From Candidatus Latescibacterota bacterium (GTDB taxonomy: Bacteria > Latescibacterota > UBA2968 > GCA-2709665): a stretch of DNA of 64,000 nt. The notes under the pieces are model-generated. The model searched no databases. It worked only from the letters and a program-made list of their open reading frames with translations, and was not told the DNA's origin. Positions within the stretch are counted from its first letter, which is position 1. Each line of letters opens with the position of its first letter. The stretch covers positions 2,944,001-3,008,000 of the forward strand of contig OZ244744.1 in the NCBI GenBank assembly GCA_965219455.1, given 5' to 3'. A program made the position numbers and the translations under genes. Shown here in pieces: positions 26,650 through 41,794 of this stretch.

Positions 26650-29628
26650 TCAGGTTCCTTCCCCCGTCCCGGTAATCGTCGGTACGACGTATTCGTCGCC
26701 GGGATTGACGAGGTAGGTGTAGCCGCTGGCGAGATCGGTACCTTCCCTGAGACCCCTGACGATCGTAATGTCGCCCGTTGAGACGCCTCCGGTTGTGACG
26801 GCCGCGATCCGGTAGCTCGTGTCCATCGGCAAATCGTTCATGAAATGGATGGTTCGACCGGCGAGGTCGCGATTCCGTGGCAGGGGTGGATCGAGGTCGA
26901 TCAGATTGTTCGCCGGGTCGGAAGCGTCGATCCGCGCCACCTTCCCGCGCCAGGCGGCGCGTTCCGCCGTCAGTTCAACGGTGCCGAAGGCGAGTAACGT
27001 GCCGCCGACCATTCGCATCAGCTTTACTTCATCCCCGACCAGGCGGATCATTCCGAATGTGCCATTGAACGTGATCCCGCCTTCCACCGTGACTTCCATC
27101 GCCTCCTCGCAGCTGATCAGTATATCCGTCCTCCCTCCGGCCATCTCCACGGCCACGGCGGCAGCCTCGACCGCATCCCCATCGGGTCTCACCTCCAATT
27201 CGCGCACCCCAACGATGAACGGCCTGGTATCGTAGGGCTCAAGCACGTTGACAAACTGGCTTTGCAACGCCTCGCCCAGCCTGCTTTGGATGAGATACCT
27301 GGGCCGCTGCAGCCTTCGGGGCGAGTCCCCGGTGGCCAGCGCGACTTCGTCACAGGGCGTTAGCGCGTGCAGCCGAAGATGGGGTTCGCGGCCTTCCGGA
27401 ATTCGGCCGCGGATATCTTCGATCTTCCAGTCGACGGTGTAAGGCTGCTGAACCGGCCCGGCGGAGCGCGTCACGTCGTACAGGTAGGTGAAACCGCTCT
27501 CCTTGTAGAATTCAGCGTTCTCGCCCTCCAACGTCGCGAACGGAACATCCGGGCCCGCGAAGGTGCCGCCTTCCTGCCCGACAAGTTCAATGCCGGTAAC
27601 CTGCGCCGTTTCCGCCGCTCCGTGCCAGGAAAGACGGTGGTTCCTCCCGCCCCGCGCGCGGAACACATCCAGAACGTAGCTGTTGTTTTCGTCCACGTCC
27701 ACGAGCGCAACGGTGCGCCGGTAGGTTTGCAGGCCCACATAAGCGTCGTGCGCATCCACCTGTATGGCGCGCAACGGGGGTTCCACGGCGAAGAATTCGA
27801 TCTGCCCGCCCGGACTGTACTCCGACCCCGTATCGCCCACCACCAGCGTATTGTGGCTGATCGTGTTGGCCGTCCATGCATGTCGCTTCGGCCAGGATCC
27901 GGTATATTCGGGATAGCCCAGATCCGGAAAAATCGCGACGTTTTCCGCCAGCAATCCCAGGTTGAGACAATCGTGGTGCGAGTGCCCCTTGCCCTGTCCG
28001 TAGTGGATGAACACGGCCCGGCCATTCTCCGCTCTTTCGGTCTGGAGGTGCGCCTGTCCGTACCTGCCGAAGTGCTCGCTTTCCAGGCTGGCCGGACCCG
28101 TATGTCCGATCTTTCGTATTTCCCGGGTCAACGCGTCCGGATCCTTACGGTAAATGTCGCCTTCGAGGCGCAGGGATGACCCATGAGCCCCGTGCTCGTG
28201 CCACGCCAGGGCCGCGAAACGCGGGTCTCCGTACAGTCTGTACGCCAGGACATAGGTCTCGGCCGCGCCTTGCCGGCCCCACGCGCCCACGGCGCCGCTG
28301 TCTCCCGTGTTGGGCATCATCCCGTCCAGCACGTTTATCCGGGATTCAACGAGATAAGCCTGTTTGAGCTTCGGGTAATCCGCAACCAGGTTGTGTCTGG
28401 TATATTTGGGATAGTGCGACAGAATCTGTACGAGTTCCCGCATATGGCGGGTCCAGATGAGACCGTAACCGCCGCATTCTCCGCCCATGCCGTCCCGGTC
28501 GAGACCCTCGGTCAACACCCACGGTACGGGATCCTTCTGATTCGTGTGGTCTCCGGGAAACCCGGGATGGAACAGCCAGTCCAGCCACTCCGGCGTCAAT
28601 TCCGGGTCGTCCAATGCAATTGCAGCGGTGGCGAGGGAGGAGTGGTTCATGCCCGTGTTGCCGCTGATCCGGCCGTCCTTCACAGACTTGAGCGCTTCCA
28701 GCAACAGGTGATCGTGAATATGCCCGCAGATCGCGGCGGTGCTGTTCTTGTCCCCCAAGTTGTATTGTTTGGCATGTTCCGAGCAGAAGGACACCAGGTC
28801 GTCGTCGCCCTGGAGTCCGTCGAAGACGATATCGTAGCTCCGGGCAAGGCCCTGCGCGACGAACGTCTCCCAGATGCAACCTTCGATGCGGCCCCTTCCC
28901 GAACCGCCCTGGCTGTGCTGAAAACCGAGTTCGTGGAGTGGAAGGTAGTCCATCTCGGGATAGACGTCTGCGATCCGGTCCAGCAGCACGCCCGCCTTGT
29001 GGGCGTAGCGCCTGTCGTCCGTGAGGGCATAGGCATCCGCCAGCGCGGCAACGCCTCGCTGGATCCGGCGCCACACCGCCTCGAAATTGTAGTATGCGAT
29101 AATGTCGTGCCTGTTTCCCTGGTCGTCGAACATGCCATATCCGTCGTCTACATAGAGTTCGTGCATCGGATCGGCCGGATCGGGATGATCTGCATTGAAA
29201 AGCAGCGACCGGTCCCCCAACTCGCGCCGGAACATCCCCTGCGCGTCGAGGGCCGTCCCGTAGAACGCCCCGAAGTCGTTTTTCGGATAGACCTCCCTGC
29301 AGTGTTCGCACCAGATCTTCCACGGCCTGGCGTCGTCGAATTCCCACCATTCGCGCCCCGATTTCGCAGGCGCCTCCTCCCCGCAGCCGGGACAGTAGGG
29401 CTTCTGGCCCTTGTATGTCACGCCTTCGTTGGTGTAGATTGTCCGCGGTAACTCCTGTGCGGTTACCATATCCCACAACGCATCGTCCGTGCGGCCCACC
29501 CACTCCTCGGCAGCCGCAACCGCGCGTTCCTGCTGTTCCCGCGCCCAATCGTGCTTCGCTGCATTTGCCTGCGCGTTCGACCGCATCGCTGCACTGACGA
29601 ATCGGCTTCGCTTTTTCCCGTTTGACAT
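26650..29628 (-). CDS. Heparinase II/III family protein
   Basis: GHSHHDCLN, PDLGYP, WTANTISHNTLVV; N-terminal CxxC...CxxC. Confidence 0.82.
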   Translation of the reverse strand: MSNGKKRSRFVSAAMRSNAQANAAKHDWAREQQERAVAAAEEWVGRTDDALWDMVTAQELPRTIYTNEGVTYKGQKPYCPGCGEEAPAKSGREWWEFDDARPWKIWCEHCREVYPKNDFGAFYGTALDAQGMFRRELGDRSLLFNADHPDPADPMHELYVDDGYGMFDDQGNRHDIIAYYNFEAVWRRIQRGVAALADAYALTDDRRYAHKAGVLLDRIADVYPEMDYLPLHELGFQHSQGGSGRGRIEGCIWETFVAQGLARSYDIVFDGLQGDDDLVSFCSEHAKQYNLGDKNSTAAICGHIHDHLLLEALKSVKDGRISGNTGMNHSSLATAAIALDDPELTPEWLDWLFHPGFPGDHTNQKDPVPWVLTEGLDRDGMGGECGGYGLIWTRHMRELVQILSHYPKYTRHNLVADYPKLKQAYLVESRINVLDGMMPNTGDSGAVGAWGRQGAAETYVLAYRLYGDPRFAALAWHEHGAHGSSLRLEGDIYRKDPDALTREIRKIGHTGPASLESEHFGRYGQAHLQTERAENGRAVFIHYGQGKGHSHHDCLNLGLLAENVAIFPDLGYPEYTGSWPKRHAWTANTISHNTLVVGDTGSEYSPGGQIEFFAVEPPLRAIQVDAHDAYVGLQTYRRTVALVDVDENNSYVLDVFRARGGRNHRLSWHGAAETAQVTGIELVGQEGGTFAGPDVPFATLEGENAEFYKESGFTYLYDVTRSAGPVQQPYTVDWKIEDIRGRIPEGREPHLRLHALTPCDEVALATGDSPRRLQRPRYLIQSRLGEALQSQFVNVLEPYDTRPFIVGVRELEVRPDGDAVEAAAVAVEMAGGRTDILISCEEAMEVTVEGGITFNGTFGMIRLVGDEVKLMRMVGGTLLAFGTVELTAERAAWRGKVARIDASDPANNLIDLDPPLPRNRDLAGRTIHFMNDLPMDTSYRIAAVTTGGVSTGDITIVRGLREGTDLASGYTYLVNPGDEYVVPTITGTGEGT

Positions 29629-29871
29629 GCCGTTGACCCCTTTCAGTTCGCAAGAATAAGTCGAATTTCAGGCCGCGTCCACGCCTAACCTGTTTTTAGA
29701 GAGGCCCGGAGCGCCTTTACCCGCGCACTTTGACGGACCGCTCGACGTGTATCGGGTCGCGGTATACGGGTTGAAATATACCCTGTGGAGGTTATATTAG
29801 GCGGGATTTCTGCGTTGCCAGCCGCCAGGACATGCCTTTATTCACGACGCACACAATCGGAGGAGAGCACG

Positions 29872-30609
29872 ATGAGCGAATCCACAGACCCAGGGAACGT
29901 TGAAAGCGGTCAAGAAATGGGGATTGGCGGGCGCATGGTCGGTGCCTTGTTTTCGCCCGGGCGGACGTTTGCCGCCGTTAATGCGCATGTCGAACACAGG
30001 GACTGGTATCTCCCCATGATCTTTATTGCAGTCGTCGGCATGTTTTCCGCTTACCTGCTGATGCCTACCGCACAGACGGCCGGGATGGAGGCCGTGCAGG
30101 AGCAACTCGCGAAAGATGAATCCCTTACGGAAGAACAGCGGGCGATGGCCCTGGAAAGCGCACAAAGGGTGATGGGCTTAGGCGCCGTTATCCTTCCGTC
30201 CATCGGTACGGCCGTGGCGATTGTTGTCCAGGCGGCAATTTTTCTCGCACTTTCGAATTTCGTATTCGGTGGCGACGGTACCTATAAAAAGACAATGGCC
30301 GTCGTGAGCTACAGCTCACTGGTGGCCATTCCCGCCGCGGTTATTACGGTGCTGCTTACCATGGCCACGGGCTCGACGACGTTCCAGGTCGGCCTGGGTC
30401 TGCTTGTGCCGGGATCCATGGAAGGGAGTTACATAAACCACTTCCTGTCCATGATCACCGTCTTCGCTGTCTGGAAGTACTTATTGATTGCGGTCGGTCT
30501 GGGGGCCGTTGCGGGTATTCGGACAAAGCTTGCGGGGATCGGCATTTTCGGACTCTGGATTCTCTATGTTCTTGCCGCCGCCGCCGCGCGGACCGCTGCG
30601 ACCATGTGA
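29872..30609 (+). CDS. YIP1 family membrane protein
   Basis: GALFSPGRTF, about 5 TM helices; GGAGGAG RBS. Confidence 0.8.
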   Translation: MSESTDPGNVESGQEMGIGGRMVGALFSPGRTFAAVNAHVEHRDWYLPMIFIAVVGMFSAYLLMPTAQTAGMEAVQEQLAKDESLTEEQRAMALESAQRVMGLGAVILPSIGTAVAIVVQAAIFLALSNFVFGGDGTYKKTMAVVSYSSLVAIPAAVITVLLTMATGSTTFQVGLGLLVPGSMEGSYINHFLSMITVFAVWKYLLIAVGLGAVAGIRTKLAGIGIFGLWILYVLAAAAARTAATM

Positions 30610-30816: not shown

Positions 30817-33800
30817 CTACGTCAATTGGTTTTCGATTATTTTTTCTATGTAGTCATATTGCTTGTTTCTTTCCTGAAACAAAATATGTGCCTTTGAGAA
30901 AAAGCGCTCGCGGTCCCAGGTACCATCGTCGTAAATCTTGAAAAGGTCGTCATAGGCAGTTGCCGAAACAATGTACGAATCCAGCGTAACGTCTTTCCGC
31001 TGGCTTCTCTCGCCAATCTCTTGGGCCAATTTCGGCAGTCTTGTGTGAAGCGTAGCTTTGTCGTCGTGTCGGTACGCGCTTGCGTGGCGCATACCGTGCG
31101 GCTCGACAAAGACGATGTGTTGTTTCTTTCCTTCTTTGATCCATAGGATGAAGTCCGGATAGAAGCCGCTCGACTCGAAAAAGCCGACGCCGGTACCCCG
31201 GCTCTGATTTCGCAGTAGAAATACCTCCTGTCCAGACAGTGTGCCGTCGTTCTCCTCCATCCAGTAGTCCTTCAAATCCTTCACAAACCGTTTCTCGCTA
31301 TGATTCAATGCGGGAGGAGTCGTCTTGAGATTTTCATCCTCTGCCTCAAGGAGTAGCGGCTGATAGAGATGCCGGTCAAAGTGGAGGCGCGGCAACTCAT
31401 CTGTTTCCTTTTCGTAGAGGCGCTCGCAGTCGGAAATCAACTCTTCGATCTTCTCCATTAATTCGCGCTTGGAGCGCTTGATACTGACAACGTACTGGCC
31501 CTTGTCCTCCGACTCACGGCCAAAGCTCAGATTCGGATCGCGCTCGTCGAGGGTCTTGTACACCATCTGTTTCGACTCCCAGCGATCCCGGTGTACGCGG
31601 TAGAATGCATCAACGTATTTTTGCAGAATTGAAGTTACGGCTTTCTGAAGACGTTCCACGTCCGTAAATGACTGAGGTCGTACGACCGCCTCATCGGCAA
31701 TCAGGCTGTAGCGCTCGCCGTCCACCATAATCCGTTGCGGTGCGTCAGGCAATATGCACAAATTGCTTAGGCCCTTCTGTTCCTTATATTCGATCAGGTC
31801 GAGATAGGCCTGTTGCCAATCTACTAGGTCCAGGCTCTCATGGGGCAGCACCCGCTCGTCTCCAAAGTGTGCGTCGGAGGTCAATACTCCGTCTTCGCTG
31901 CTTTCCAGCGACTGAACCTTTAGCGACAAGTCGACCCTTACTTTCCTTAATTCGGAATCCGGCTCCAGGAGACGACTTTGAGTCTTGACGAATTCGCCAC
32001 CGTCTTGTATCCGTGGAACGACGAGCCCCGCTTCGAGCAGCTTCTTATCTGGGCGGACAAAAAGAGGTAGCTCATCGTACCCTTCTGTATCCACGCCCTC
32101 CCGCTCCAGGTACTTTCTGAACTCGGCCATGTAGTTGGCACGCACCGCAAAGATATTGAGCGTCTCCAGCAGGCCGATACGTTCCGGATGCGATCCATCC
32201 ACCGCCGCGCTCCGCTTGAGGCTTGCGTCCCTGCCTCGCAAGCGCACCCCGCGGCCAAAGAGTTGGATAATCTCCGAACCTTCGCTGCTACCGATGTTCA
32301 GGAGTCCCATGTTCGACACGCGCCAGGAGTTCCATCCCTCCATAAATTTCTTTGCGCCAATGAGAACCTGAATCCCAGTCTGCGGATCATTGATACTCTC
32401 GAATAGTGAGCCGGACAGAGCGTCTTCTTCCAGTGTAATTCCAGTCTCATCATTTTCTACCAGTTTCTTGAATGCGCTGACGTCCCCGATGTAGATAAGG
32501 CCGAAATAGTCATCGGCGCCGCTCGCTTTGAGGCCCAATTCGCCGTCGACGCCTCGGATTGCACAGAGGTGCAACCCGCCACCGGCCGGAGCATGGAATA
32601 CCTTTTTTAGTATGTCATCGTAAATTTCCCTGGCGAGGCGTTGAAACTCCCGGAGATATGTAAACTTGCCAGCGAATACGTCTCTTCCGTCCGGCGTTAC
32701 CAGGTCGCTGTCGCCCTTAACGAGTCGATTAATCGCACCGATAGTCCATTCGCGCCGGCTTAAGACGCGATGCAGGAACCGCGCCACGGTCAGCACGTCA
32801 CTGCGTTTCTTCCTGTTCTTGCTGTACACAGCATTTACCGTGCTGCCGACGAAGACCCATAGGGGCTTTTCCAGATTGTATAGACGTAATTCTTCGGCCG
32901 ACTGAGTGAAGACACATTGCTGCTCGTAGAAGGACAGCAAGTTGCCGAGCAGTAACGTATCCGTCTTTTCCTCGGTAGTCTCGTCGACGAGATTGAGTAC
33001 GCGGAAGTCCTTGCCGTAACCATCGCCGTGGAAATATCTATACGAATAATCGAATGCAATGGCCTTTCCGTATTCCATTGTAAGCGTGTCATTGGAAACC
33101 GCTCTCAATGCCTGGCCAAAAGTGGCGCTGTATTCAAACGTAAAGCCACTCTTGCCGAGGTCGTCGCGGTAACGTCGCCATACGTCGCCGCCAGAACCCT
33201 TATGCCCTTCATCGACGAAGATCAGGTTGTTGCCTTCGAATGCCTCAACGGGTACGCTAACGCCTCCGCCTTGCTTCTGCTCGACCAGCTTGGTGATTTC
33301 AATGACCCTCACATCGTCTTTTTTGCCGCCCTCGTTCATGTCGAACGGACCGCAGCGGATGTTCGAGGCCACCATTTCGCTCATGTGCTGTTCACTCAGT
33401 CCCTCGTTGGGCGTAATCAGCAAGACGTTGTCCAGGGTCTGGTTGTTGTAGTGCAGGAATTGACGATAGTTGAGGTGCATAATGAGGGTCTTGCCGCTTC
33501 CGGTCGCCATCCAGAAGGCCAGCTTCTTCAAGTCGGATTCGCAGAACTCTTCACCCCTATTGCGCTCGGCGGAAAACGCATTCAGGGAGCTAAGCATCCG
33601 GCCCCGTTGGTTGAAGTACCGATGCAGGAACAATTCCGCGTATATTGCCGCGAGGTATTGGAAGTATCGGAGATGGATCGGTTTAGATCGATCGGCATTC
33701 ATAGCCTTCAGGTGGTTTTGTACGTTGTCGTCGTATTGCACAAGAACTTCCTGTGCGATATTCACCGCGTCGCCGCGTCCTATCAGTCGATTATAGACAT

Positions 33801-33939
33801 GACTGTGACTCTCAGTGAACCCCTCCGCATCCTTCATGTCGGCCAGTAATTCGCGGTTGCTTCGGTAGCCGAACTGCATGTTTAGCCACGCCAACAACAC
33901 GAGGTGCTGGTCCAGACCGGTGTTTTCTACGGGTGGCAT
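30817..33939 (-). CDS. res: Type III restriction enzyme Res subunit (SF2 helicase + PD-(D/E)xK nuclease)
   Basis: MATGSGKT, VDEGH, YSAT, EGW, QLFGRGVR; FYPDF...FVEPHG. Confidence 0.92.
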   Translation of the reverse strand: MPPVENTGLDQHLVLLAWLNMQFGYRSNRELLADMKDAEGFTESHSHVYNRLIGRGDAVNIAQEVLVQYDDNVQNHLKAMNADRSKPIHLRYFQYLAAIYAELFLHRYFNQRGRMLSSLNAFSAERNRGEEFCESDLKKLAFWMATGSGKTLIMHLNYRQFLHYNNQTLDNVLLITPNEGLSEQHMSEMVASNIRCGPFDMNEGGKKDDVRVIEITKLVEQKQGGGVSVPVEAFEGNNLIFVDEGHKGSGGDVWRRYRDDLGKSGFTFEYSATFGQALRAVSNDTLTMEYGKAIAFDYSYRYFHGDGYGKDFRVLNLVDETTEEKTDTLLLGNLLSFYEQQCVFTQSAEELRLYNLEKPLWVFVGSTVNAVYSKNRKKRSDVLTVARFLHRVLSRREWTIGAINRLVKGDSDLVTPDGRDVFAGKFTYLREFQRLAREIYDDILKKVFHAPAGGGLHLCAIRGVDGELGLKASGADDYFGLIYIGDVSAFKKLVENDETGITLEEDALSGSLFESINDPQTGIQVLIGAKKFMEGWNSWRVSNMGLLNIGSSEGSEIIQLFGRGVRLRGRDASLKRSAAVDGSHPERIGLLETLNIFAVRANYMAEFRKYLEREGVDTEGYDELPLFVRPDKKLLEAGLVVPRIQDGGEFVKTQSRLLEPDSELRKVRVDLSLKVQSLESSEDGVLTSDAHFGDERVLPHESLDLVDWQQAYLDLIEYKEQKGLSNLCILPDAPQRIMVDGERYSLIADEAVVRPQSFTDVERLQKAVTSILQKYVDAFYRVHRDRWESKQMVYKTLDERDPNLSFGRESEDKGQYVVSIKRSKRELMEKIEELISDCERLYEKETDELPRLHFDRHLYQPLLLEAEDENLKTTPPALNHSEKRFVKDLKDYWMEENDGTLSGQEVFLLRNQSRGTGVGFFESSGFYPDFILWIKEGKKQHIVFVEPHGMRHASAYRHDDKATLHTRLPKLAQEIGERSQRKDVTLDSYIVSATAYDDLFKIYDDGTWDRERFFSKAHILFQERNKQYDYIEKIIENQLT

Positions 33940-33941
33940 TT

Positions 33942-34286
33942 CTATCGCTCGTCCTTGACGATTAATTCGAGTTTTTCTATCAGCGGCGGCAGGTCGTTGT
34001 CTATTTTGTCCCACAACCCTTCGAGGCTCAATTCTTCGCATTTCGGAACGAGCCGACTGCGCATCCCAACAGTTTGTTGCCAGGGAATTTCCGTGTACCG
34101 GTGTCGGGTTGAAAATGAGACACGGCTGGCCGCCTCACCGACAATCTCGACCAATTTCAGGAGCGCGAGTTCCAGGAGCCGATTGTCCGCTAACTCGTTA
34201 AGACTTGTACCGCGGAGCAATACAACAGCTTCCCTTGCGTGGTTCCGCATATCTACGAGGCTTGCTCGGTCATCATATCTGCCCAT
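33942..34286 (-). CDS. DUF86/HepT-like HEPN protein, catalytic His missing
   Basis: EIVGEAA...IPW...GMRSRLVPKC where RNRLxHxY is expected. Confidence 0.8.
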   Translation of the reverse strand: MGRYDDRASLVDMRNHAREAVVLLRGTSLNELADNRLLELALLKLVEIVGEAASRVSFSTRHRYTEIPWQQTVGMRSRLVPKCEELSLEGLWDKIDNDLPPLIEKLELIVKDER

Positions 34287-34438
34287 ACACGTGCTCCGCT
34301 GGGCCGGAATTCTCCTCAATATACCGCGCGCTGTGCCCGCTGGTTACTCCTTGAGGGTGCGAATACACTCATCACTCCCGTGGATGTGTCCAGCTTCATC
34401 TCCAATCTTAACAACCCTTGTCGCGCTCAATGCTACCG

Positions 34439-35608
34439 CTATGTTGCCCTGGTCGGTACCCTAAACGGCCGGAGATTCAGCATTGTTTCCTTATTGGCGA
34501 AGTAGCTATTCCCTTCCCTTGAAATCCAACCATTATCTGTGAGCCACTGGAGATCCTTCGTGATGATGAATGGATTCTTCTTGTACGACGGTCCTAAACT
34601 TTCAATTGTCATAATAAGCGCTAATTCGTCTACTGCTCGATCGCTGCTTGATATTTTCAGCAGCAGATCGCGGCGCCTTTTGCCAGCGACTGTATCCTGT
34701 CTCGGGAAATGTTGATAAACATGGTGCTGCCAGACAATGTCCAGATGCTGTCTCCAGATCATCTGCAATTGACCTTGAAGCCCGTCGAGGAATCCCTGCA
34801 CGGCATAATAGAGAAAGGGTACGATCTCTCCTCCGGATTGGCTGGTCCGCGCGAGTTGGCGCGCGTATTCGGCACGCGTCGCACTATAATGGCTACTCAA
34901 CAGGTGACAGGCCGGTACCGGTATACCTGAGCGCAACAAAATAGCGAGTTCCAGGAGTCTCGCTGTGCGACCGTTTCCGTCGCCGAACGGATGGATCCAG
35001 GCGACGTAGAGATGAGCTAATACTGCTTTAATGATTGCGAATGTAATCTCCTCGCCTTTTGGTACGTCAACTCCGTCTCTTAACCACTGACATAGCCTCT
35101 CCAGCAGGTATTCGCAATCCACTGCGGGTGCTCCTCGATACCTCCCGCCCACGCCCACGGAGTGGGTGCGAATCGTACCCGGTATGGAACCCTCTTGTTG
35201 ACTGAGCTTGTCGAGAACGGCCCCATTCATCTCCCTGATCCACTCAATATCCAGGGGTTCGACCGACCCTTCGCGCATTCCGTCGATAGTGGCGTTGATG
35301 GCCTTAATAATGTTGTCGACCTCCTGCGCCAGATACTCACGGGAGGGAGGCAGTTCCAGTTCGCCCTCTATATGCCGCAAAACGTCCTCTTCGGAGAGTG
35401 TATTACCTTCGATTGCGGTGGTGGCATGGACGCCCTTGGCCAAATAAATCTTATAGAGGTCCTCAGCCGAGTCATGAACCAATGGTACCCTGGAGATGTG
35501 CTCGATTTTGGAAGCGCATTCTCCGAGCTTCATCCATAGCAAATAGGGCACTTCCCGGAGATCGACTTGAAAGGTGATCCAGGGGTGGGTCTTCTCGTAT
35601 TTCCTCAT
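34439..35608 (-). CDS. Fic family protein (class II)
   Basis: HPFGDGNGRTAR; N-terminal TTAIEGN inhibitory motif. Confidence 0.92.
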   Translation of the reverse strand: MRKYEKTHPWITFQVDLREVPYLLWMKLGECASKIEHISRVPLVHDSAEDLYKIYLAKGVHATTAIEGNTLSEEDVLRHIEGELELPPSREYLAQEVDNIIKAINATIDGMREGSVEPLDIEWIREMNGAVLDKLSQQEGSIPGTIRTHSVGVGGRYRGAPAVDCEYLLERLCQWLRDGVDVPKGEEITFAIIKAVLAHLYVAWIHPFGDGNGRTARLLELAILLRSGIPVPACHLLSSHYSATRAEYARQLARTSQSGGEIVPFLYYAVQGFLDGLQGQLQMIWRQHLDIVWQHHVYQHFPRQDTVAGKRRRDLLLKISSSDRAVDELALIMTIESLGPSYKKNPFIITKDLQWLTDNGWISREGNSYFANKETMLNLRPFRVPTRAT

Positions 35609-35654
35609 GGTTGGCCAATGCCTAAATTTCGCGCGTTATAGTCCATTCTTTTCG

Positions 35655-36980
35655 TTATCCCTCATCCTTCTGGTCGTCAGGAATCTCTGAGAGCCTTGTC
35701 ATAAGTTGTCTAATCATTTCGTTAACCATTCTCTTTAGCACTTCCAGGTCTTGTCCCGCATATTCTTTTTCGTAATCCAGTTTATAGGACGTAAACTGCC
35801 AGATGGAGCCCATTGATTTCAATTCATTCTCAATTCGGAAATTATAATTCGCATCTTGCTTCGCCTGAAATTGATCGAAGTCGATTCCGATGTTAGTAGA
35901 GACAAAGATCGCTTTATCCGGCCAGGCTCTTGCCTTATCCTCTCCGAGATCAAGACTTGATACTGTACCGTCAACATTTCGCACAGAACAAACACCATAA
36001 TCTGCATCAACACTCTCGAACACGTCAGAAAATGGCTCGCACTTTGCATTGCAATAGCAAAAAAGCGGATACAGCACTCTCTCGGCATATTCTCTCGCTT
36101 GAATTAACTCACCTGTGCCGGATTGTATTGATCTTTTGAAAAGCGCGATTTCTTTGTCTATGTCCTCTACGTCTTCGATATCCTCTCCACGAGCGGCTCG
36201 CAGATGGAGACCGAGGGTGTATTCACAGCAGCCGGTAACGTAAGAGATAAAGTCGGCAAGGTCTTCTGACTTGTCGGCCTTCTCCAGCGAGTCGATATAT
36301 CGGTTTCTTTCCTGAATTGGAAAAATAGCCACCGTGTAGCCGTGCTTGATGAGAATCATATTCATCAATAGCCGCGCCATGCGACCGTTCCCGTCGTCAA
36401 ACGGATGGATACGGACAAAGCGATAATGAAACGTCGCTGCGATGAAGATCGGATGCTCGCTCGCATTCTCGGCGCGCCTATACCAGTCGATAAGATCAGT
36501 CATCTCCGGCTTTACCTGATCGGGTGGGGTGTAGTAATATGTCTCGCCGGTCGAGGTCTCGACGTTATTTGGTTGGGTTTTATATTGTCCAATGGTAATG
36601 AGTCGCTTCGTGGGTTGTCCATCCGGTGTAATTGCGTCAATTTCATAGGGTTCTTTCAACAATACCCTGTGGAGATTTCGGATAAAGACTTGGTTGAGAG
36701 ATTCGTTTCGTTTTATTGCATCCTCGATCGCCTTTACTGCTTCGTCGTGACCCTCAATGTCCAGATGATCGCGCATTGGTTTACCGTGCGCGGTGAGTCC
36801 GTGCAGAATAAGGCTTCTCGTTTCTCCAAGAGTCAGGCTGTTGCCTTCTATGGCGTTGGAGTGGTAGTTCGACTCGATTCTTAGCTTCTGTTCAATCCGT
36901 CCCACTACGTCCGATGGCAATGGCCGCAGTGCGTCCAATTCAGCTTTAAGCAGATCGATTTCATCAATGATATTTGACAT
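35655..36980 (-). CDS. Fic family protein (class II) with C-terminal extension
   Basis: HPFDDGNGRMAR; SNAIEGN; start may lie further upstream. Confidence 0.92.
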   Translation of the reverse strand: MSNIIDEIDLLKAELDALRPLPSDVVGRIEQKLRIESNYHSNAIEGNSLTLGETRSLILHGLTAHGKPMRDHLDIEGHDEAVKAIEDAIKRNESLNQVFIRNLHRVLLKEPYEIDAITPDGQPTKRLITIGQYKTQPNNVETSTGETYYYTPPDQVKPEMTDLIDWYRRAENASEHPIFIAATFHYRFVRIHPFDDGNGRMARLLMNMILIKHGYTVAIFPIQERNRYIDSLEKADKSEDLADFISYVTGCCEYTLGLHLRAARGEDIEDVEDIDKEIALFKRSIQSGTGELIQAREYAERVLYPLFCYCNAKCEPFSDVFESVDADYGVCSVRNVDGTVSSLDLGEDKARAWPDKAIFVSTNIGIDFDQFQAKQDANYNFRIENELKSMGSIWQFTSYKLDYEKEYAGQDLEVLKRMVNEMIRQLMTRLSEIPDDQKDEG

Positions 36981-37238
36981 GCTTGGATTGTCTACCTGAT
37001 CAAGAGTCTGTTGGTTTGTTTCCTGATGGCTTATCTGTTCCGTGTTTTCCGTGGGTATGACTGGATGCATAGATTCCCCGCGCGGTGCATCCACCACGCC
37101 ATCCGGGGCTGAGCGTTCGCCACCCAGCCATTTCTTTAAAATACCCAGACCTTTGCAAATGTTCCCTCGTTTGCCATTTATCGCACCGTTTCAGCTGACA
37201 GGAGCGGCTTGAACTCGTTGTTCTCACAGAAGTGTTGA

Positions 37239-37991
37239 CTACCGTCTTTCCACAGTTGGCACATCTGAAGACACCGTATGTCCCAAGACAAGGCTTCGAA
37301 AGGACGCCATGTGCTCAGTTGCATTTTTCACCATGCTGCGGTGTTCCGTCAACTCTTCTTCTGGCAATAAACGAGCCAAATTCCCACTTTTGCCATCCTC
37401 CAAGATCGCAATACTAATCGGTTCATTTATTCCCCCAGGATTGACTTCACAGGCATGGATCAAAGCCCAAAGCGCGGTGAATATCGCGCCGCGGAGGTTT
37501 GGGGGTTCTTCTTTCCAAAAAATAGAACGAAAAAAAGCCAACAGGGGATCGAGAATTGGCTGACCACTTCCAGCGGCTACCCACCAATTATTCTCTAGCA
37601 TCTTGATTTCGGGCTGAAATCCGGTAATTGACGGCAGTTCACATAAGGACATTCCATCGGTGGCGGAATAGGCCACCAAAGCTGAAAAATCAAGATTGCT
37701 AACCTTAGTTTCTTGAAAGTCCGCGATCCCAGATTGAGAAAGCATCTTGCCTATTTCAATGGAGTCTTTGCCTCTAAATGCTCGGCCTCTCCACAGCTTC
37801 CGAACAACATGGCAGAATCTTTGAGCGTGGCCAACATAGCCGGATCCCGCAACGATCAGATGACTATCGATGATTTCTATCTTCTTGGTCGGCTGCTCGA
37901 TTGTGTGATGCTGCCCGTGGACAAATGTTGCAGAACCGTCGGCACCTATCACCACGCCGTCCTTGCATCGAATACCTATTAATGCAGTCAT
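37239..37991 (-). CDS. Proteasome beta/HslV-like Ntn protease
   Basis: M-T1ALIGIRCKDGVVIGAD17, KI Lys, AGSG and second AAGSG. Confidence 0.82.
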   Translation of the reverse strand: MTALIGIRCKDGVVIGADGSATFVHGQHHTIEQPTKKIEIIDSHLIVAGSGYVGHAQRFCHVVRKLWRGRAFRGKDSIEIGKMLSQSGIADFQETKVSNLDFSALVAYSATDGMSLCELPSITGFQPEIKMLENNWWVAAGSGQPILDPLLAFFRSIFWKEEPPNLRGAIFTALWALIHACEVNPGGINEPISIAILEDGKSGNLARLLPEEELTEHRSMVKNATEHMASFRSLVLGHTVSSDVPTVERR

Positions 37992-37999
37992 GCCTATTC

Positions 38000-38452
38000 C
38001 TAAAAAATGCTGTTTTCGCGCATATTCGGATACGCTCTATAAATGGCGCCTACGAGTTCCGCAAAAGACAAACTCCGAACCCACTCTGACAGTTGTTTCA
38101 GATAATTCTGCACGTAAGTGGGCAGATTAGCGATCGCCCTTTCGCCCTGTCCCTGACCTGCATAGGTTAGCGAGTAGGACCGACCGGTAATGCTCGTGCT
38201 CGATCCCTGTGCCGTGATTTGTACGAGTCCCCGTTCCTGAAGCGCCTCAAGTTCCGCATATACCGCCTTATCAAATGGACCGTAGTCATATGGTTCAAAA
38301 GCAAACTGCTTACCATGCATTTCATCAGCGATCTTCTCATCCATGAGGAAGAGCAACTTCTGGACCTGAACAGGTTCAAACGAGGAATCAGGCACAGCGG
38401 AAAGACCTGCTAGGACCATCTTCTGACGGTGCGAAAGCTCGTTTGGCATCAC
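38000..38452 (-). CDS. Panacea/SocA (DUF4065)/YwgA-like winged-helix protein
   Basis: VQKLLFL...FEPYDYGPF...YSLT..G; AGGAG RBS. Confidence 0.7.
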   Translation of the reverse strand: MMPNELSHRQKMVLAGLSAVPDSSFEPVQVQKLLFLMDEKIADEMHGKQFAFEPYDYGPFDKAVYAELEALQERGLVQITAQGSSTSITGRSYSLTYAGQGQGERAIANLPTYVQNYLKQLSEWVRSLSFAELVGAIYRAYPNMRENSIF

Positions 38453-38522
38453 AATCTCCTTTTCTTCGACAAACGCGATGGTATTGTCTCAGCCGAAAAG
38501 CAAATGGCCTTCGGTGAATTAC

Positions 38523-38553
38523 TGAACATATGTTCATCATTCGTCCATGTCAA
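38523..38553 (-). promoter_or_regulatory. Sigma70 promoter with overlapping perfect palindrome TGAACATATGTTCA (LexA-box-like operator)
   Basis: Minus strand TTGACA (38553-38548), 17 nt, TATGTT (38530-38525); palindrome 38523-38536 contains GAAC-N4-GTTC. Confidence 0.7.
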
Positions 38554-38665
38554 GAAAATATGTGGATGCGTTCACGGGTTTATTTAGTTGCACGTGAGTC
38601 CGCACTGGTACGGTCGGTATCTCGTAGGAGGCCATTCGGCTCGCCGCTAGCGCGTGCGATTGCCT

Positions 38666-41600
38666 TCATTCTCCTACTCCCGCGAACATCCGCCGCTTGA
38701 ACAATGGTTCCAGAGCTTTCGCCTCGTGTATCAGCGAGTCGCCGTTAACGTATACATTGTCTACGCCTTCAGTCAACTTCTGTTCGACAACAAAGTCTCT
38801 ATCGAGTACAAAGTCCGGCTTCTGCCAATCCTCCGTTTCTCGCCAGATCACTGCAACCCGCGCCTGGTCGATCTGGCCACGATAGACAAGGTATCGCCGG
38901 TCGTCGTCGTAATGAACTCGCCTCGTCTGCACGTTAAGGCCGATCAGGTAGTTGAAGGTCTCAGGGATGTCGGCCATGTTCTGCCGCGTCTCTCCGTCGG
39001 AGTGGATGTTCAGTTGGTAGGAGAACGGCTTCGAGAGCTTTTCTACGTTCAGCAACGTATGGCTACGTTTTGTTTCCCATTGTAACATGTAATTGATAAG
39101 GTAGTCTTGGAATGCCAATGTCTGCTGTGCGGAGCCCTCGTCGAAGTCGATGTTATTCAGAGCGTCCTCATAACTCTCAAGACGCATATACTGGACTATA
39201 CGTGGGCTACGCTGGACGTCTTGTGGTGTGGTGTTCTTGGGTTTACCTCCATTCCATTCAGGCGCAAATGTAACTTTCTTGATCCGTGGAAGTAGTACAG
39301 TGTCGAAATAATCCCCCATCTCTACGAGGATGAACTTGCGCTTTCCATCGTCTTCACGGTTGAGGTTGATGACGGCATGGCCGGTTGTACCCGAGCCGGC
39401 AAAGAAATCAAGCACGACCGATTGCGAATCACAACGGGACGCACGTAGGCAATCCTCTACCAAGGCAATCGACTTGGCGAAGTCGAATTCCTTCTCTCCC
39501 AAAATGTCTTTTAGGGCCTTTGCACCAAGATTGGCTGAAGCGTATTTGCTATTGTCCCACCATGTCTTAGGCATTGAACTCATGTCGATTCGTATCTTAA
39601 AATCGATGTTAATTCCGTTGTTGTTATCGCGAGCGTTTCCGGTCCTCCGAACTCTGTACTCGGATGGATCGCTTTTTACAAGGCTAAAACCTCGGTGCCA
39701 GTTTTTTTCTATTACCGTCCCACCCTGAATTCTGATCGGCCAAACGGCAATCTCATTTTCACCTACCTCCTCTAATACGTCATATTCACTCTTATCCGAA
39801 TTCCATCTAATTTCAGGAACACGGATTTCATCGTCATCACCAACGTAAATCGGATAATGCATCTTCGGACGATCCTGTCGCCGATCATTTGACCCGTGCC
39901 TTATGAGATTATTCCATGCAAATCTGCCTTTTTTATCGACATGCGGATATCGTGCGAGTTCGTTCTGCGTTTTATGGATAGTTCCGGGAACTGAGGTTGT
40001 GTTACCGAAAAAAAGTGCATATTCATGAGTGGGAGAAAACTGCCCCTTTGATTTGCGTCCGGCAGGATTTGACCTAACTGCAACAATACCTAAAGTCCTT
40101 TCAAAGAGTCCTGCCATTATTGTGCGGAGTTGGCATACTTCCTCGTCGTCAATCGCGCAGCACAAGATTCCCTCATTCGATTGTAGATTCAAGCAAAGTG
40201 ACAGCCTATTTTCCATTAGCGACAGCCACGAGGAATCCTTGTAGTTATTCTTATATACAATCGCTGAAGCGTCTGTGTTGTATGGCGGATCTATGTACGT
40301 GCACTGAACCTGACCACGAAAGCGGGCTTGTAGTAAATTTAGCGCTTGCCAATTTTCGCTATGAATTAGCACACCATCAGTCATTCCATGTAGATCGTCA
40401 ATACTGCCCAGCAGCCGGTCCACGAAGTCTTGGTCGAAGTGTCTCGTATCGAGGACCAGCGTGGGATGTGTTTTCAGGAACGCAACGCGCTTGTTTGTCT
40501 TATTCGTGCCCGAGTTGAACAGGTTGGTTTGATCTTCGTCAATGCCGAACAATTCTCGCCACTCGACCCACTGCGCGTCGCACAGGGCGATCTCCCTAAA
40601 GAAATCTTCATCTATGCATCTTACCGAAATACAATACTGTGTCTCAGTTACGAACTTACGCTTCTCCCAGAGCATCTCTTGAAAGTTTTCTATCTGCTCG
40701 AGGAAGTAAATGATCTCGCCACCGATTGAGCGGATTGTCCGCATTGTCTGGAACCAGGTCTCGGACTTTTCCTCGCCTGACGCTTCCATCTCGTCAAGAT
40801 TCAACACTTCGTTCTTCAGGTAGAAATCGAGTTCACGAGTCAGGAAGCCCTTCAGGTCTTTGTGGATGAAGAAATCCGAAGTATTGCGCCGCGTGTACTG
40901 CACAAGGTGATGTTCGAAGAAAGAGACCGACTTACCATCACTATTTTTTCGCCTTTCGGCCATTAGTGCGGCGGTCGCCTCGCTGGAGTGGTTCAGGCGA
41001 CCTGGAATTTCGGACACCGCTTTATTGATGATGTTTTCCTGATGATTGGTTTTGCCGTAAGTGATTTTTTCCTGAGAAGTCAGCGGACGGTATTCAAGCG
41101 ATATTGCTAACCGCCCGGACGGTTCGTCCCAAATTGGCGCCTCGTTGCACGGCACAAAATAACGTTTGTCACTCTTGACGTTATCCTGTTTGACGTCAGC
41201 AGCCTTCAGCCTGAATTCCACCGTGACTCTTCGCGACTTGAAGGCATAGTTCTGGAAGTGCTCGCCAGTCTTCACGTAGTATTGGTCGCTGTTCGCCCAA
41301 TGGAGGTGTACTTCTTCGCCGTTGTACGGAATGGCGTAACGATGACGTTTCGAATAACGGCGTTTCGAGATGAAATCACCGTCCTGGTAATACCGGCTAA
41401 AGAAAGCGTAAAGATGATTGAAGATCACCGCTTCGAGCGCATCACGTCCCTGTGCGCCTGAGGCTTTCGCTTGGTGTTCTAGGTATTCTTTGCCGAGCGG
41501 GATACAATGATGTACCTCCAACAGATTTCCGTCAGCGTCGATGGCATTGGAACCAAGGGCTTGAACGACTCGCTGCCGACATTCGTTCAATTCGTCGATT

Positions 41601-41794
41601 GCGCGTGATTGCGTGGCCAGAGCATCCCGTTCCAACTCTGAAGCTACGGATTTTGGTAAGTCCGCAGCAATAAATCGCTCGATAACGTCCCGCTTGTGAT
41701 TCATAATGCGGTAGATACCAAAGTCCAGCTCTGCGCAGTCGAATTGGAATAACTCTCGCAGAAGATTCTGGAATTTTTCGAGCGATGTGCTCAT
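38666..41794 (-). CDS. mod: Type III R-M Mod subunit (N6-adenine methyltransferase)
   Basis: LDFGIYRI N-terminus, IDPPY, TRD region, DFFAGSGTT, LESYEDALNN. Confidence 0.93.
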   Translation of the reverse strand: MSTSLEKFQNLLRELFQFDCAELDFGIYRIMNHKRDVIERFIAADLPKSVASELERDALATQSRAIDELNECRQRVVQALGSNAIDADGNLLEVHHCIPLGKEYLEHQAKASGAQGRDALEAVIFNHLYAFFSRYYQDGDFISKRRYSKRHRYAIPYNGEEVHLHWANSDQYYVKTGEHFQNYAFKSRRVTVEFRLKAADVKQDNVKSDKRYFVPCNEAPIWDEPSGRLAISLEYRPLTSQEKITYGKTNHQENIINKAVSEIPGRLNHSSEATAALMAERRKNSDGKSVSFFEHHLVQYTRRNTSDFFIHKDLKGFLTRELDFYLKNEVLNLDEMEASGEEKSETWFQTMRTIRSIGGEIIYFLEQIENFQEMLWEKRKFVTETQYCISVRCIDEDFFREIALCDAQWVEWRELFGIDEDQTNLFNSGTNKTNKRVAFLKTHPTLVLDTRHFDQDFVDRLLGSIDDLHGMTDGVLIHSENWQALNLLQARFRGQVQCTYIDPPYNTDASAIVYKNNYKDSSWLSLMENRLSLCLNLQSNEGILCCAIDDEEVCQLRTIMAGLFERTLGIVAVRSNPAGRKSKGQFSPTHEYALFFGNTTSVPGTIHKTQNELARYPHVDKKGRFAWNNLIRHGSNDRRQDRPKMHYPIYVGDDDEIRVPEIRWNSDKSEYDVLEEVGENEIAVWPIRIQGGTVIEKNWHRGFSLVKSDPSEYRVRRTGNARDNNNGINIDFKIRIDMSSMPKTWWDNSKYASANLGAKALKDILGEKEFDFAKSIALVEDCLRASRCDSQSVVLDFFAGSGTTGHAVINLNREDDGKRKFILVEMGDYFDTVLLPRIKKVTFAPEWNGGKPKNTTPQDVQRSPRIVQYMRLESYEDALNNIDFDEGSAQQTLAFQDYLINYMLQWETKRSHTLLNVEKLSKPFSYQLNIHSDGETRQNMADIPETFNYLIGLNVQTRRVHYDDDRRYLVYRGQIDQARVAVIWRETEDWQKPDFVLDRDFVVEQKLTEGVDNVYVNGDSLIHEAKALEPLFKRRMFAGVGE

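Follow-up and report, generated by a model that had tools for sequence, protein, structure and literature searches.

A proteasome-like enzyme and an antitoxin-fold partner form a conserved, apparently undescribed two-gene module in bacteria and archaea

Results

The locus and its surroundings

The window analysed here is a stretch of 64,000 nucleotides from the genome of a Candidatus Latescibacterota bacterium (contig OZ244744.1, positions 2,944,001 to 3,008,000), and the features that bear on the gene pair are listed below in window coordinates.

38666..41794, minus strand: type III R-M methyltransferase (Mod), context
38548..38553, minus strand: -35 hexamer, TTGACA, of the promoter predicted for the pair; in locus L001, too, it stands ahead of the box
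38523..38536, palindromic, no strand: putative LexA (SOS) box of the host type, TGAAC-N4-GTTCA, 14 bp, matching the box upstream of host lexA
38000..38452, minus strand: gene 1, the partner, a winged-helix protein of 149-150 aa from the SocA/Panacea/DarG-C clan
37239..37991, minus strand: gene 2, a stand-alone proteasome-beta-like Ntn hydrolase of 250 aa that matches PF00227
35655..37097, minus strand: Fic-domain protein, context
34439..35608, minus strand: second Fic-domain protein, SoFic-like, context
33942..34319, minus strand: HepT-like (DUF86) gene, context
30817..34041, minus strand: type III R-M restriction subunit (Res), context

Gene 1 could start at 38452 or 38449, the ATG at 38449 being the probable start, and both reading frames of the two-gene unit that an earlier note on this DNA had described were found on the minus strand, separated by the reported gap of 8 bp, where an AGGA shares bases with the stop codon of gene 1. 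Along the minus strand type III Mod comes first, followed by the pair, the two Fic genes, the HepT-like gene and type III Res, the true start of Res probably lying about 100 bp downstream of its ORF start. The block from 30817 to 41794 has a G+C content of 50%, compared with 58% genome-wide, and no terminator was predicted between 37000 and 38700. A locus from the same genus (L001) is laid out alike and has a TTGACA and a box of its own. The embedding in a restriction-modification locus holds for this site, where the pair lies between Mod and Res, but it does not characterise the family, being shared by a minority of the other loci only.

As the earlier note had stated, no alpha subunit, HslU or Pup gene was found among the ORFs of the window between 25 and 52 kb. 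The genome does encode a proteasome alpha/beta pair, at a distance of about 620 kb (host positions 2360789-2368479), and by eye the ORFs flanking it look like ARC/Mpa, Dop and PafA, which points to a Pup-proteasome operon. On one side the restriction-modification block is flanked by genes for a heparinase II/III-like protein (26650-29628) and a Yip1-domain membrane protein (29785-30609), and on the other by a nitroreductase gene and the ATP synthase operon. No nucleotidyltransferase ORF was seen beside the HepT-like gene (33942-34319). Contigs from a related strain skip 33945-34423 and 34755-35079, hence the HepT-like/Fic region differs between strains. In one related strain both genes of the pair are covered by contigs from four RNA-library runs of a single study, for which a DNA origin is possible. 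Elsewhere in the host genome, a defence island (L177:7351-16953, genome positions 2717351-2726953) contains Fic, ImmA/RmrA-like, E1-E2-JAB and type I specificity genes.

Promoter and LexA box

The box at 38523-38536 overlaps the -10 hexamer (38530-38525) of a predicted promoter, TTGACA-17-TATGTT, and a box over the -10 hexamer is in the usual position for repression. Taken alone, the promoter scan was at chance level, with two promoters found and 1.6 expected. The 14-bp pattern has ten copies in the 5.84-Mb genome, one of which lies upstream of the best LexA match; a version degenerate in one half-site lies upstream of recA, and the core pattern also precedes a 1443-aa ORF read by eye as an Lhr helicase. 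This host-type box overlapping the promoter suggests that the pair is a member of the LexA regulon in this genome. Host positions 5721483 and 5047180 likely represent the LexA box of this lineage, at lexA and, as the degenerate copy, at recA. Two further LexA-like genes of the host are without the box, and four identical copies of the palindrome at 3782243-3783527, spaced by 321 bp or double that distance, probably lie within a repeat.

The LexA-box-like promoter claimed previously therefore stands for this locus, where the box is matched to the host, but most of the other loci have no box. The SOS-box patterns used for each host group were those that we took to apply. The exact alphaproteobacterial direct-repeat box was found upstream of the partner in 5/25 regions, compared with 0/97 controls, three of the five belonging to one Caulobacteraceae clade. 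A box was also seen in one of 11 loci from the Chloroflexota (a palindrome) and one of four from the Latescibacterota, and in none of 15 from the beta- and gammaproteobacteria; in other groups no box was enriched upstream of the partner, although the patterns tested may not be the boxes of those hosts. An SOS box common to the whole family was considered and rejected. As most loci show no box, SOS control is best regarded as a recurrent add-on and not as a defining feature.

The proteasome-like protease

Gene 2 begins Met-Thr and has Asp18, Lys37, Gly51 and G141-S142-G143, so that the catalytic residues, the GSG motif and the absence of a propeptide given in the earlier note were all found. 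It scores 41.1 bits against PF00227 (cut-off 22.4, E 2e-10) and 39.9 bits against the archaeal beta model TIGR03634, for which the cut-off is 224; alpha models were matched too. The family score of a canonical 20S beta subunit or HslV was thus not reached, and neither an alpha nor an HslU gene was found as a conserved neighbour. The predicted structure (pLDDT 92.5) has the proteasome-subunit fold, matching 20S subunits with a Z of 22.0 (rmsd 3.1, 202 residues aligned) and Anbu with a Z of 20.8 over 215 residues, the longest structural alignment; matches to HslV (Z 17.5), BPH (Z 17.4) and connectase (Z 11.2) were weaker.

Over 124 distinct paired homologues Thr1, Asp17 and Gly47 are invariant, the catalytic Lys33 is present in 123 and Ser142 is kept in 104. 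Threonine is the second residue in all 124 whatever the start codon (85 ATG, 32 GTG and seven read as Leu), from which it follows that the family has no propeptide. The C-terminal helix (211-235) is long, amphipathic and Anbu-like, with a heptad pattern and hydrophobic residues at 214, 221, 224, 228 and 231 in 96-100% of rows. H2 is followed by a 7-residue loop with no helical pore-loop insertion, and the C-terminal helix H5 of the WPH/ACC/Anbu type is present. At 50% identity the family comprises 184 clusters if E is limited to 1e-30, and 631 if the limit is 1e-10. The protein probably belongs to the WPH family or to a group II family such as PMI-1 or PHD; none of the accessions from 20 cluster look-ups equals a listed subfamily representative of Fuchs 2021.

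With this fold the enzyme could be a specific amidase, an isopeptidase, a connectase-like ligase or an addition to the host 20S proteasome, with the partner as its specificity subunit. This we regard as very improbable, as the model keeps helices H1-H2, which are absent in connectase, and its Z of 11 against connectase compares with 20-22 against proteasome and Anbu chains. An addition to the 20S particle is further at odds with the many proteobacterial hosts of the family, since most Proteobacteria are not known to have a 20S alpha subunit.

The antitoxin-like partner

The QKLLF motif and the winged helix that had been read in gene 1 were both recovered, the former in the sequence (QKLLF..F.F.PYDYGP) and the latter also in the predicted structure (pLDDT 92.3), which comprises a winged helix with three added helices. 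The assignment to a Panacea/SocA-like protein held only in a broader sense. The Gly-Pro motif and membership of the wider SocA/DarG-C clan support it, but gene 1 lies below the cut-offs of Pfam Panacea (PF13274, 15.9 bits and 25.7), NCBIfam SocA (NF047745, 17.7 bits and 190) and the DarG model. Among 100 homologues an E of 0.01 was reached by 14 for Panacea, 38 for PadR, 43 for SocA and 41 for DarG. Alignment of the gene 1 profile with one true Panacea protein by hhalign gave a probability of 0.2% (a single-sequence template); for a PDC-M19A protein, whose N-terminus the profile matches, the probability is 96.6%.

The best fold match is the C-terminal domain of DarG (PDB 7YK3; Z 10.4, rmsd 4.3, 138 residues aligned), which Foldseek also ranks first (E 3e-4). 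A Z of 10.4 is modest for a helical fold; the next structure has a Z of 8.4. The motif after the KLL.F/Y helix is of the GPV type, its Gly and Pro being invariant in 124/124 and followed by Phe; a Gly-Pro motif of Panacea is described in the accessible part of PMC8832971. The partner ends in a tail, P.M..NS[VI]F, of which P, M, S and F are present in 98-100% of the 124. Its pI ranges from 5.1 to 9.1 and it is thus not consistently acidic, so it may not share the DNA-mimic mechanism of DarG.

Distant clan members from archaeal and alphaproteobacterial genomes adjoin PIN, DUF3368, HD, TrmB and Cap4-nuclease genes (49 of 149 neighbouring ORFs were scanned), and some are fused to DUF488 or UPF0175. 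Taking together the scores below cut-off, the DarG-C fold match and these varied neighbours, gene 1 is a member of a promiscuous SocA/DarG-C-like clan and not Panacea in the strict sense; the clan presumably also carries the label YwgA, which appears in source names. The weak SocA and DarG similarity and the DarG-C fold of the predicted structure may be counted in favour of a toxin-antitoxin reading of the pair. In the archaea a separate cassette was observed (L232-L236, L240, L242, L245 and L253), composed of a winged-helix protein of the clan (in many cases a fusion with UPF0175), a PIN/DUF3368 gene and a third, likewise conserved protein of 380-410 aa; two of the latter were scanned and gave no Pfam match.

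Similarity to PadR raises the question of whether the partner is a DNA-binding repressor, which upon a signal would be cleaved by the enzyme so that neighbouring genes are switched on, as in CapH/CapP or ImmR/ImmA. The PadR-like matches and the many PadR/MarR structures at Z 7-8.4 agree with this, as does the precedent of ImmA/ImmR in the part of PMC10440598 that is accessible. However, the DarG C-terminal domain fits 138 residues, compared with about 90 for PadR-type proteins, and the charge of the partner is variable. In this genome the pair precedes the Fic, HepT-like and Res genes without a predicted terminator, and in three Caulobacteraceae loci a dCTP-deaminase gene lies within about 1.4 kb downstream, both of which would suit such a switch. 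Against it, few loci share their neighbours, among which housekeeping genes are frequent, and the regulatory box, where seen, is the LexA box of the host. Overall a repressor switch appears improbable.

SocA delivers substrates to ClpXP, and HslU and HbYX tails switch proteases on. The partner might likewise be an ATP-independent adaptor or activator, which would supply the enzyme with substrates or activate it by way of the C-terminal tail, the pair then constituting a minimal targeted protease that would serve in DNA damage or infection. The SocA similarity among its homologues points this way, SocA being described as a proteolytic adaptor in the accessible part of PMC8832971, as do the near-invariance of the tail, the end of the protein only two residues past the tail Phe in 97/124, and the lack of an AAA+ gene accompanying the pair. 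However, no conserved substrate gene lies nearby, and tails of this kind are also seen in distant clan members that have no protease gene next to them, so that the tail is not a protease-specific motif. Together with the evidence from gene order and gene loss given below, we consider an adaptor or activator rather unlikely, if a credible competitor.

Conservation of the pair

Starting from 167 protease-seeded loci, near-duplicates included, one without a protease ORF match and ten with less than 150 bp upstream were dropped. The partner lies beside the protease in 154 of the 156 informative loci: upstream and co-directional in 134, tail-to-tail in 17, divergent in one and split from it by an inserted gene in two. 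The gap between co-directional genes ranges from -4 to +25 bp with a mode of +3. In the tail-to-tail loci (L003-L007, L009, L043, L080 and nine metagenome loci) the genes mostly overlap by 4 bp at their stop codons and each needs its own promoter; in all, 18 loci are inverted and so do not have the form of an operon. The pair has no conserved third gene, the frequent small clusters being shadow ORFs on the opposite strand. A lineage only about 20% identical has the same arrangement in all seven genomes with a match and on one viral contig, whilst three weaker viral matches to this lineage are without the partner. Conservation of the pair, on which the earlier note had made its proposal depend, was thus upheld well beyond close relatives.

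The 17 tail-to-tail loci cannot be one operon and count against a type II reading, as this layout is unusual for type II pairs; for an adaptor or activator they pose no problem. The pairwise identities of the two proteins are correlated (Spearman 0.48, with none of 1000 permutations as high, 124 pairs), which would be expected from co-inheritance and is by itself no sign of contact. Inter-protein mutual information over the 124 pairs gave a top Z of 9.3, compared with 5.5-6.7 in five shuffles; its top pairs share three partner columns and so look like clade signal, and the measure was not used.

Loci with a lost or broken gene

Gene losses were tallied by hand, with kin that are not independent and, for partner-seeded loci, only those with flank: an intact protease is missing in five of 15 distinct partner-seeded loci (L207, L210-L212, L217, L220/L224 and L221), and an intact protease without an intact partner accounts for four events in 139 protease-seeded loci. 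One of these (L071) has no partner within 8 kb on either side; in the others a frameshifted partner lies beside the intact protease (L047, L065 and L120/L125), the lesion in L047 being at homopolymer runs. In a further locus (L118) the protease lacks its N-terminus and the partner is absent. Small lesions fall about equally on the two genes, with four in the protease and three in the partner, and thus show no asymmetry. Within the lineage of about 20% identity, the protease is broken and the adjoining partner intact in three of seven genomes.

This pattern fits an antitoxin able to persist alone, and orphan partners being commoner than orphan proteases speaks against an adaptor or activator. 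On the other hand, L071 suggests that the enzyme is not always lethal when unaccompanied, and together with the loci where a frameshifted partner adjoins an intact protease it counts against the enzyme as a toxin. Without an intact partner a protease in need of an activator would be harmless, which would account for L071, L047, L065 and L125.

At L071 (8001-8999) a small Xre-type HTH gene lies tail-to-tail with the protease in the partner's stead. A viral contig (L217, 3998-5217) has two tandem partner-like genes and no protease, and the phage contigs L210-L212 have one orphan partner near terminase-like genes; these orphans could be phage-borne inhibitors of the module.

Spread and neighbourhoods

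Of 250 confirmed stretches in the collection of species genomes, the best 80 were examined as loci. Their hosts belong to several classes of Proteobacteria and to the Chloroflexota, Acidobacteriota, Verrucomicrobiota, Planctomycetota, Nitrospirota, Nitrospinota, Latescibacterota, Bacillota, Patescibacteria and Methanomicrobiales, and on a quick tree of 74 proteases the phyla are mixed. The module is found in three of 41 related genomes and in two of 401 in one class sample, seed genome included; a search with the protease profile of 200 Acidobacteriota and 200 Chloroflexota genomes found nothing besides the seed genome, and tblastn against plasmid and phage collections gave no match. A tRNA gene lies within 1.5 kb in 11/65 loci and in 6/123 shifted windows (p 0.008; among the genes of the host the figure is 154/4461). 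The module is therefore horizontally spread, rare and patchy, and enriched beside tRNA genes. One Latescibacterota genome has two near-identical copies at distant sites (L037 and L041).

Almost every locus has different neighbours; among them are housekeeping and prophage genes, integrases and transposases, besides defence genes (R-M types I-III, Gabija, Shedu, dCTP deaminase and AbiD). The enrichment in defence islands that the earlier note had proposed to check was not seen: PADLOC-matched neighbours occur in 22/80 loci and in 8/31 control blocks (p 1.0), or in 19/80 and 4/31 once generic ABC-ATPase, methylase, RT and radical-SAM matches are dropped (p 0.16), and by protein in 33/294 neighbours and 10/122 controls, the controls being 31 of 40 blocks picked in the same way from one genome, that of the host, which is rich in defence genes. 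Payne et al. (10.1101/2024.01.29.577857) argue, in the accessible part of their text, that even single occurrences embedded in R-M loci merit testing; for this pair that argument is a lead only. A dCTP-deaminase gene adjoins the module in L010, L012, L052, L100 and L110, and adjoins the orphan partner of L221.

Discussion

The pair is a conserved and coupled two-gene cassette of patchy spread, as is characteristic of type II cassettes, and we put at about even the chances that it is a type II toxin-antitoxin-like module with a threonine protease as its effector. Of the proposal of a toxin-antitoxin or anti-phage module, the mobile two-gene form has stood (154/156 loci, patchy) and the enrichment near defence genes has not. 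Deep et al. reportedly showed in 2023 that the C-terminal domain of DarG binds and inhibits its toxin. For the present pair, direct binding and inhibition of the enzyme by the partner, with triggered release, is a mechanism whose odds we judge to be balanced. Removal of the initiator Met would expose the intact Thr-Asp-Lys Ntn site of gene 2, and the winged-helix partner would bind the proteasome-like enzyme and keep it off. A phage protein, loss of the partner or, where LexA controls the pair, DNA damage might then act as the trigger that frees the enzyme, which would cleave a host or phage protein such that growth is slowed or the infection aborted.

Several known systems resemble the module in part. 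Anbu is usually encoded with a transglutaminase, an ATP-grasp protein and an alpha-E protein, and these operon partners are not conserved neighbours of the pair. Gene 2 shares with Anbu (PDB 5LOY) a stand-alone beta-like subunit with a long C-terminal helix, but is only 11% identical to it. HslVU and the 20S proteasome have the same catalytic residues and fold; however, the module is without propeptide, alpha subunit and AAA+ partner, and is mobile and rare as opposed to housekeeping. RosmerTA, CapH/CapP and ImmR/ImmA are likewise two-gene modules of a protease with an HTH or toxin partner, and use ImmA/IrrE zinc metalloproteases. In RosmerTA, moreover, the protease is the antitoxin, according to the accessible part of PMC10440598. 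The DarTG system provides the best fold match for gene 1, which nevertheless has no macrodomain, no DarT neighbour, only 14-15% identity and no consistent acidity. PanAT/SocAB (Panacea, DUF4065), as presented in the available parts of PMC8832971 and PMC10440598, has a similarly small upstream antitoxin-like gene with a Gly-Pro motif, a coupled downstream enzyme and a patchy spread, the difference being that gene 1 is below the Pfam and NCBIfam cut-offs. The word "proteasome" is absent from the main text and supplementary files of Kurata 2022 (PMC8832971) and Ernits 2023 (PMC10440598), in so far as these were accessible.

Closest to gene 2 are the homologues of Fuchs, Alva and Lupas (2021; PMC8665760), the accessible part of which presents 22 new proteasome-homologue subfamilies. 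Like them, gene 2 is a propeptide-less beta-like subunit that occurs in bacteria and archaea and resembles alpha as well as beta subunits, and it has a C-terminal heptad helix such as is predicted for WPH/ACC. Those authors found no genomic context or co-occurrence suggestive of function, as far as that part goes, whereas the gene 2 family has a dedicated partner in 154/156 loci.

The earlier note knew of no description of this pairing, and we also found none: among the PADLOC 2.0.0 models none matched any of 93 protease homologues and gene 1 matches only the N-terminus of PDC-M19A, and a literature search, with most subscription papers outside its scope, yielded neither a description of the pair nor a report of a threonine Ntn protease as toxin or defence effector. 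The two-gene module is thus real and apparently undescribed, of a known kind of architecture with an enzyme class new to that architecture.

More than 20 prokaryotic proteasome homologues are without a known function, according to the accessible part of PMC8665760, and the pair provides one such orphan with a constant partner that is not an ATPase, the two genes together making a system for tests. Should the enzyme be a toxin or defence effector, it would place a threonine Ntn protease in that role; should the partner be an adaptor, the pair would amount to a minimal targeting system independent of ATP, with a bearing on the origin of proteasome regulators. It is possible, if somewhat short of an even prospect, that the module represents an undescribed class of conflict system in prokaryotes, with a proteasome-type threonine protease as effector and, as its dedicated ATP-independent gate or adaptor, a protein of antitoxin fold. 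An orphan proteasome homologue would thereby gain its first partner and functional context, across bacteria and archaea and, in several hosts, under the SOS box of the respective host.
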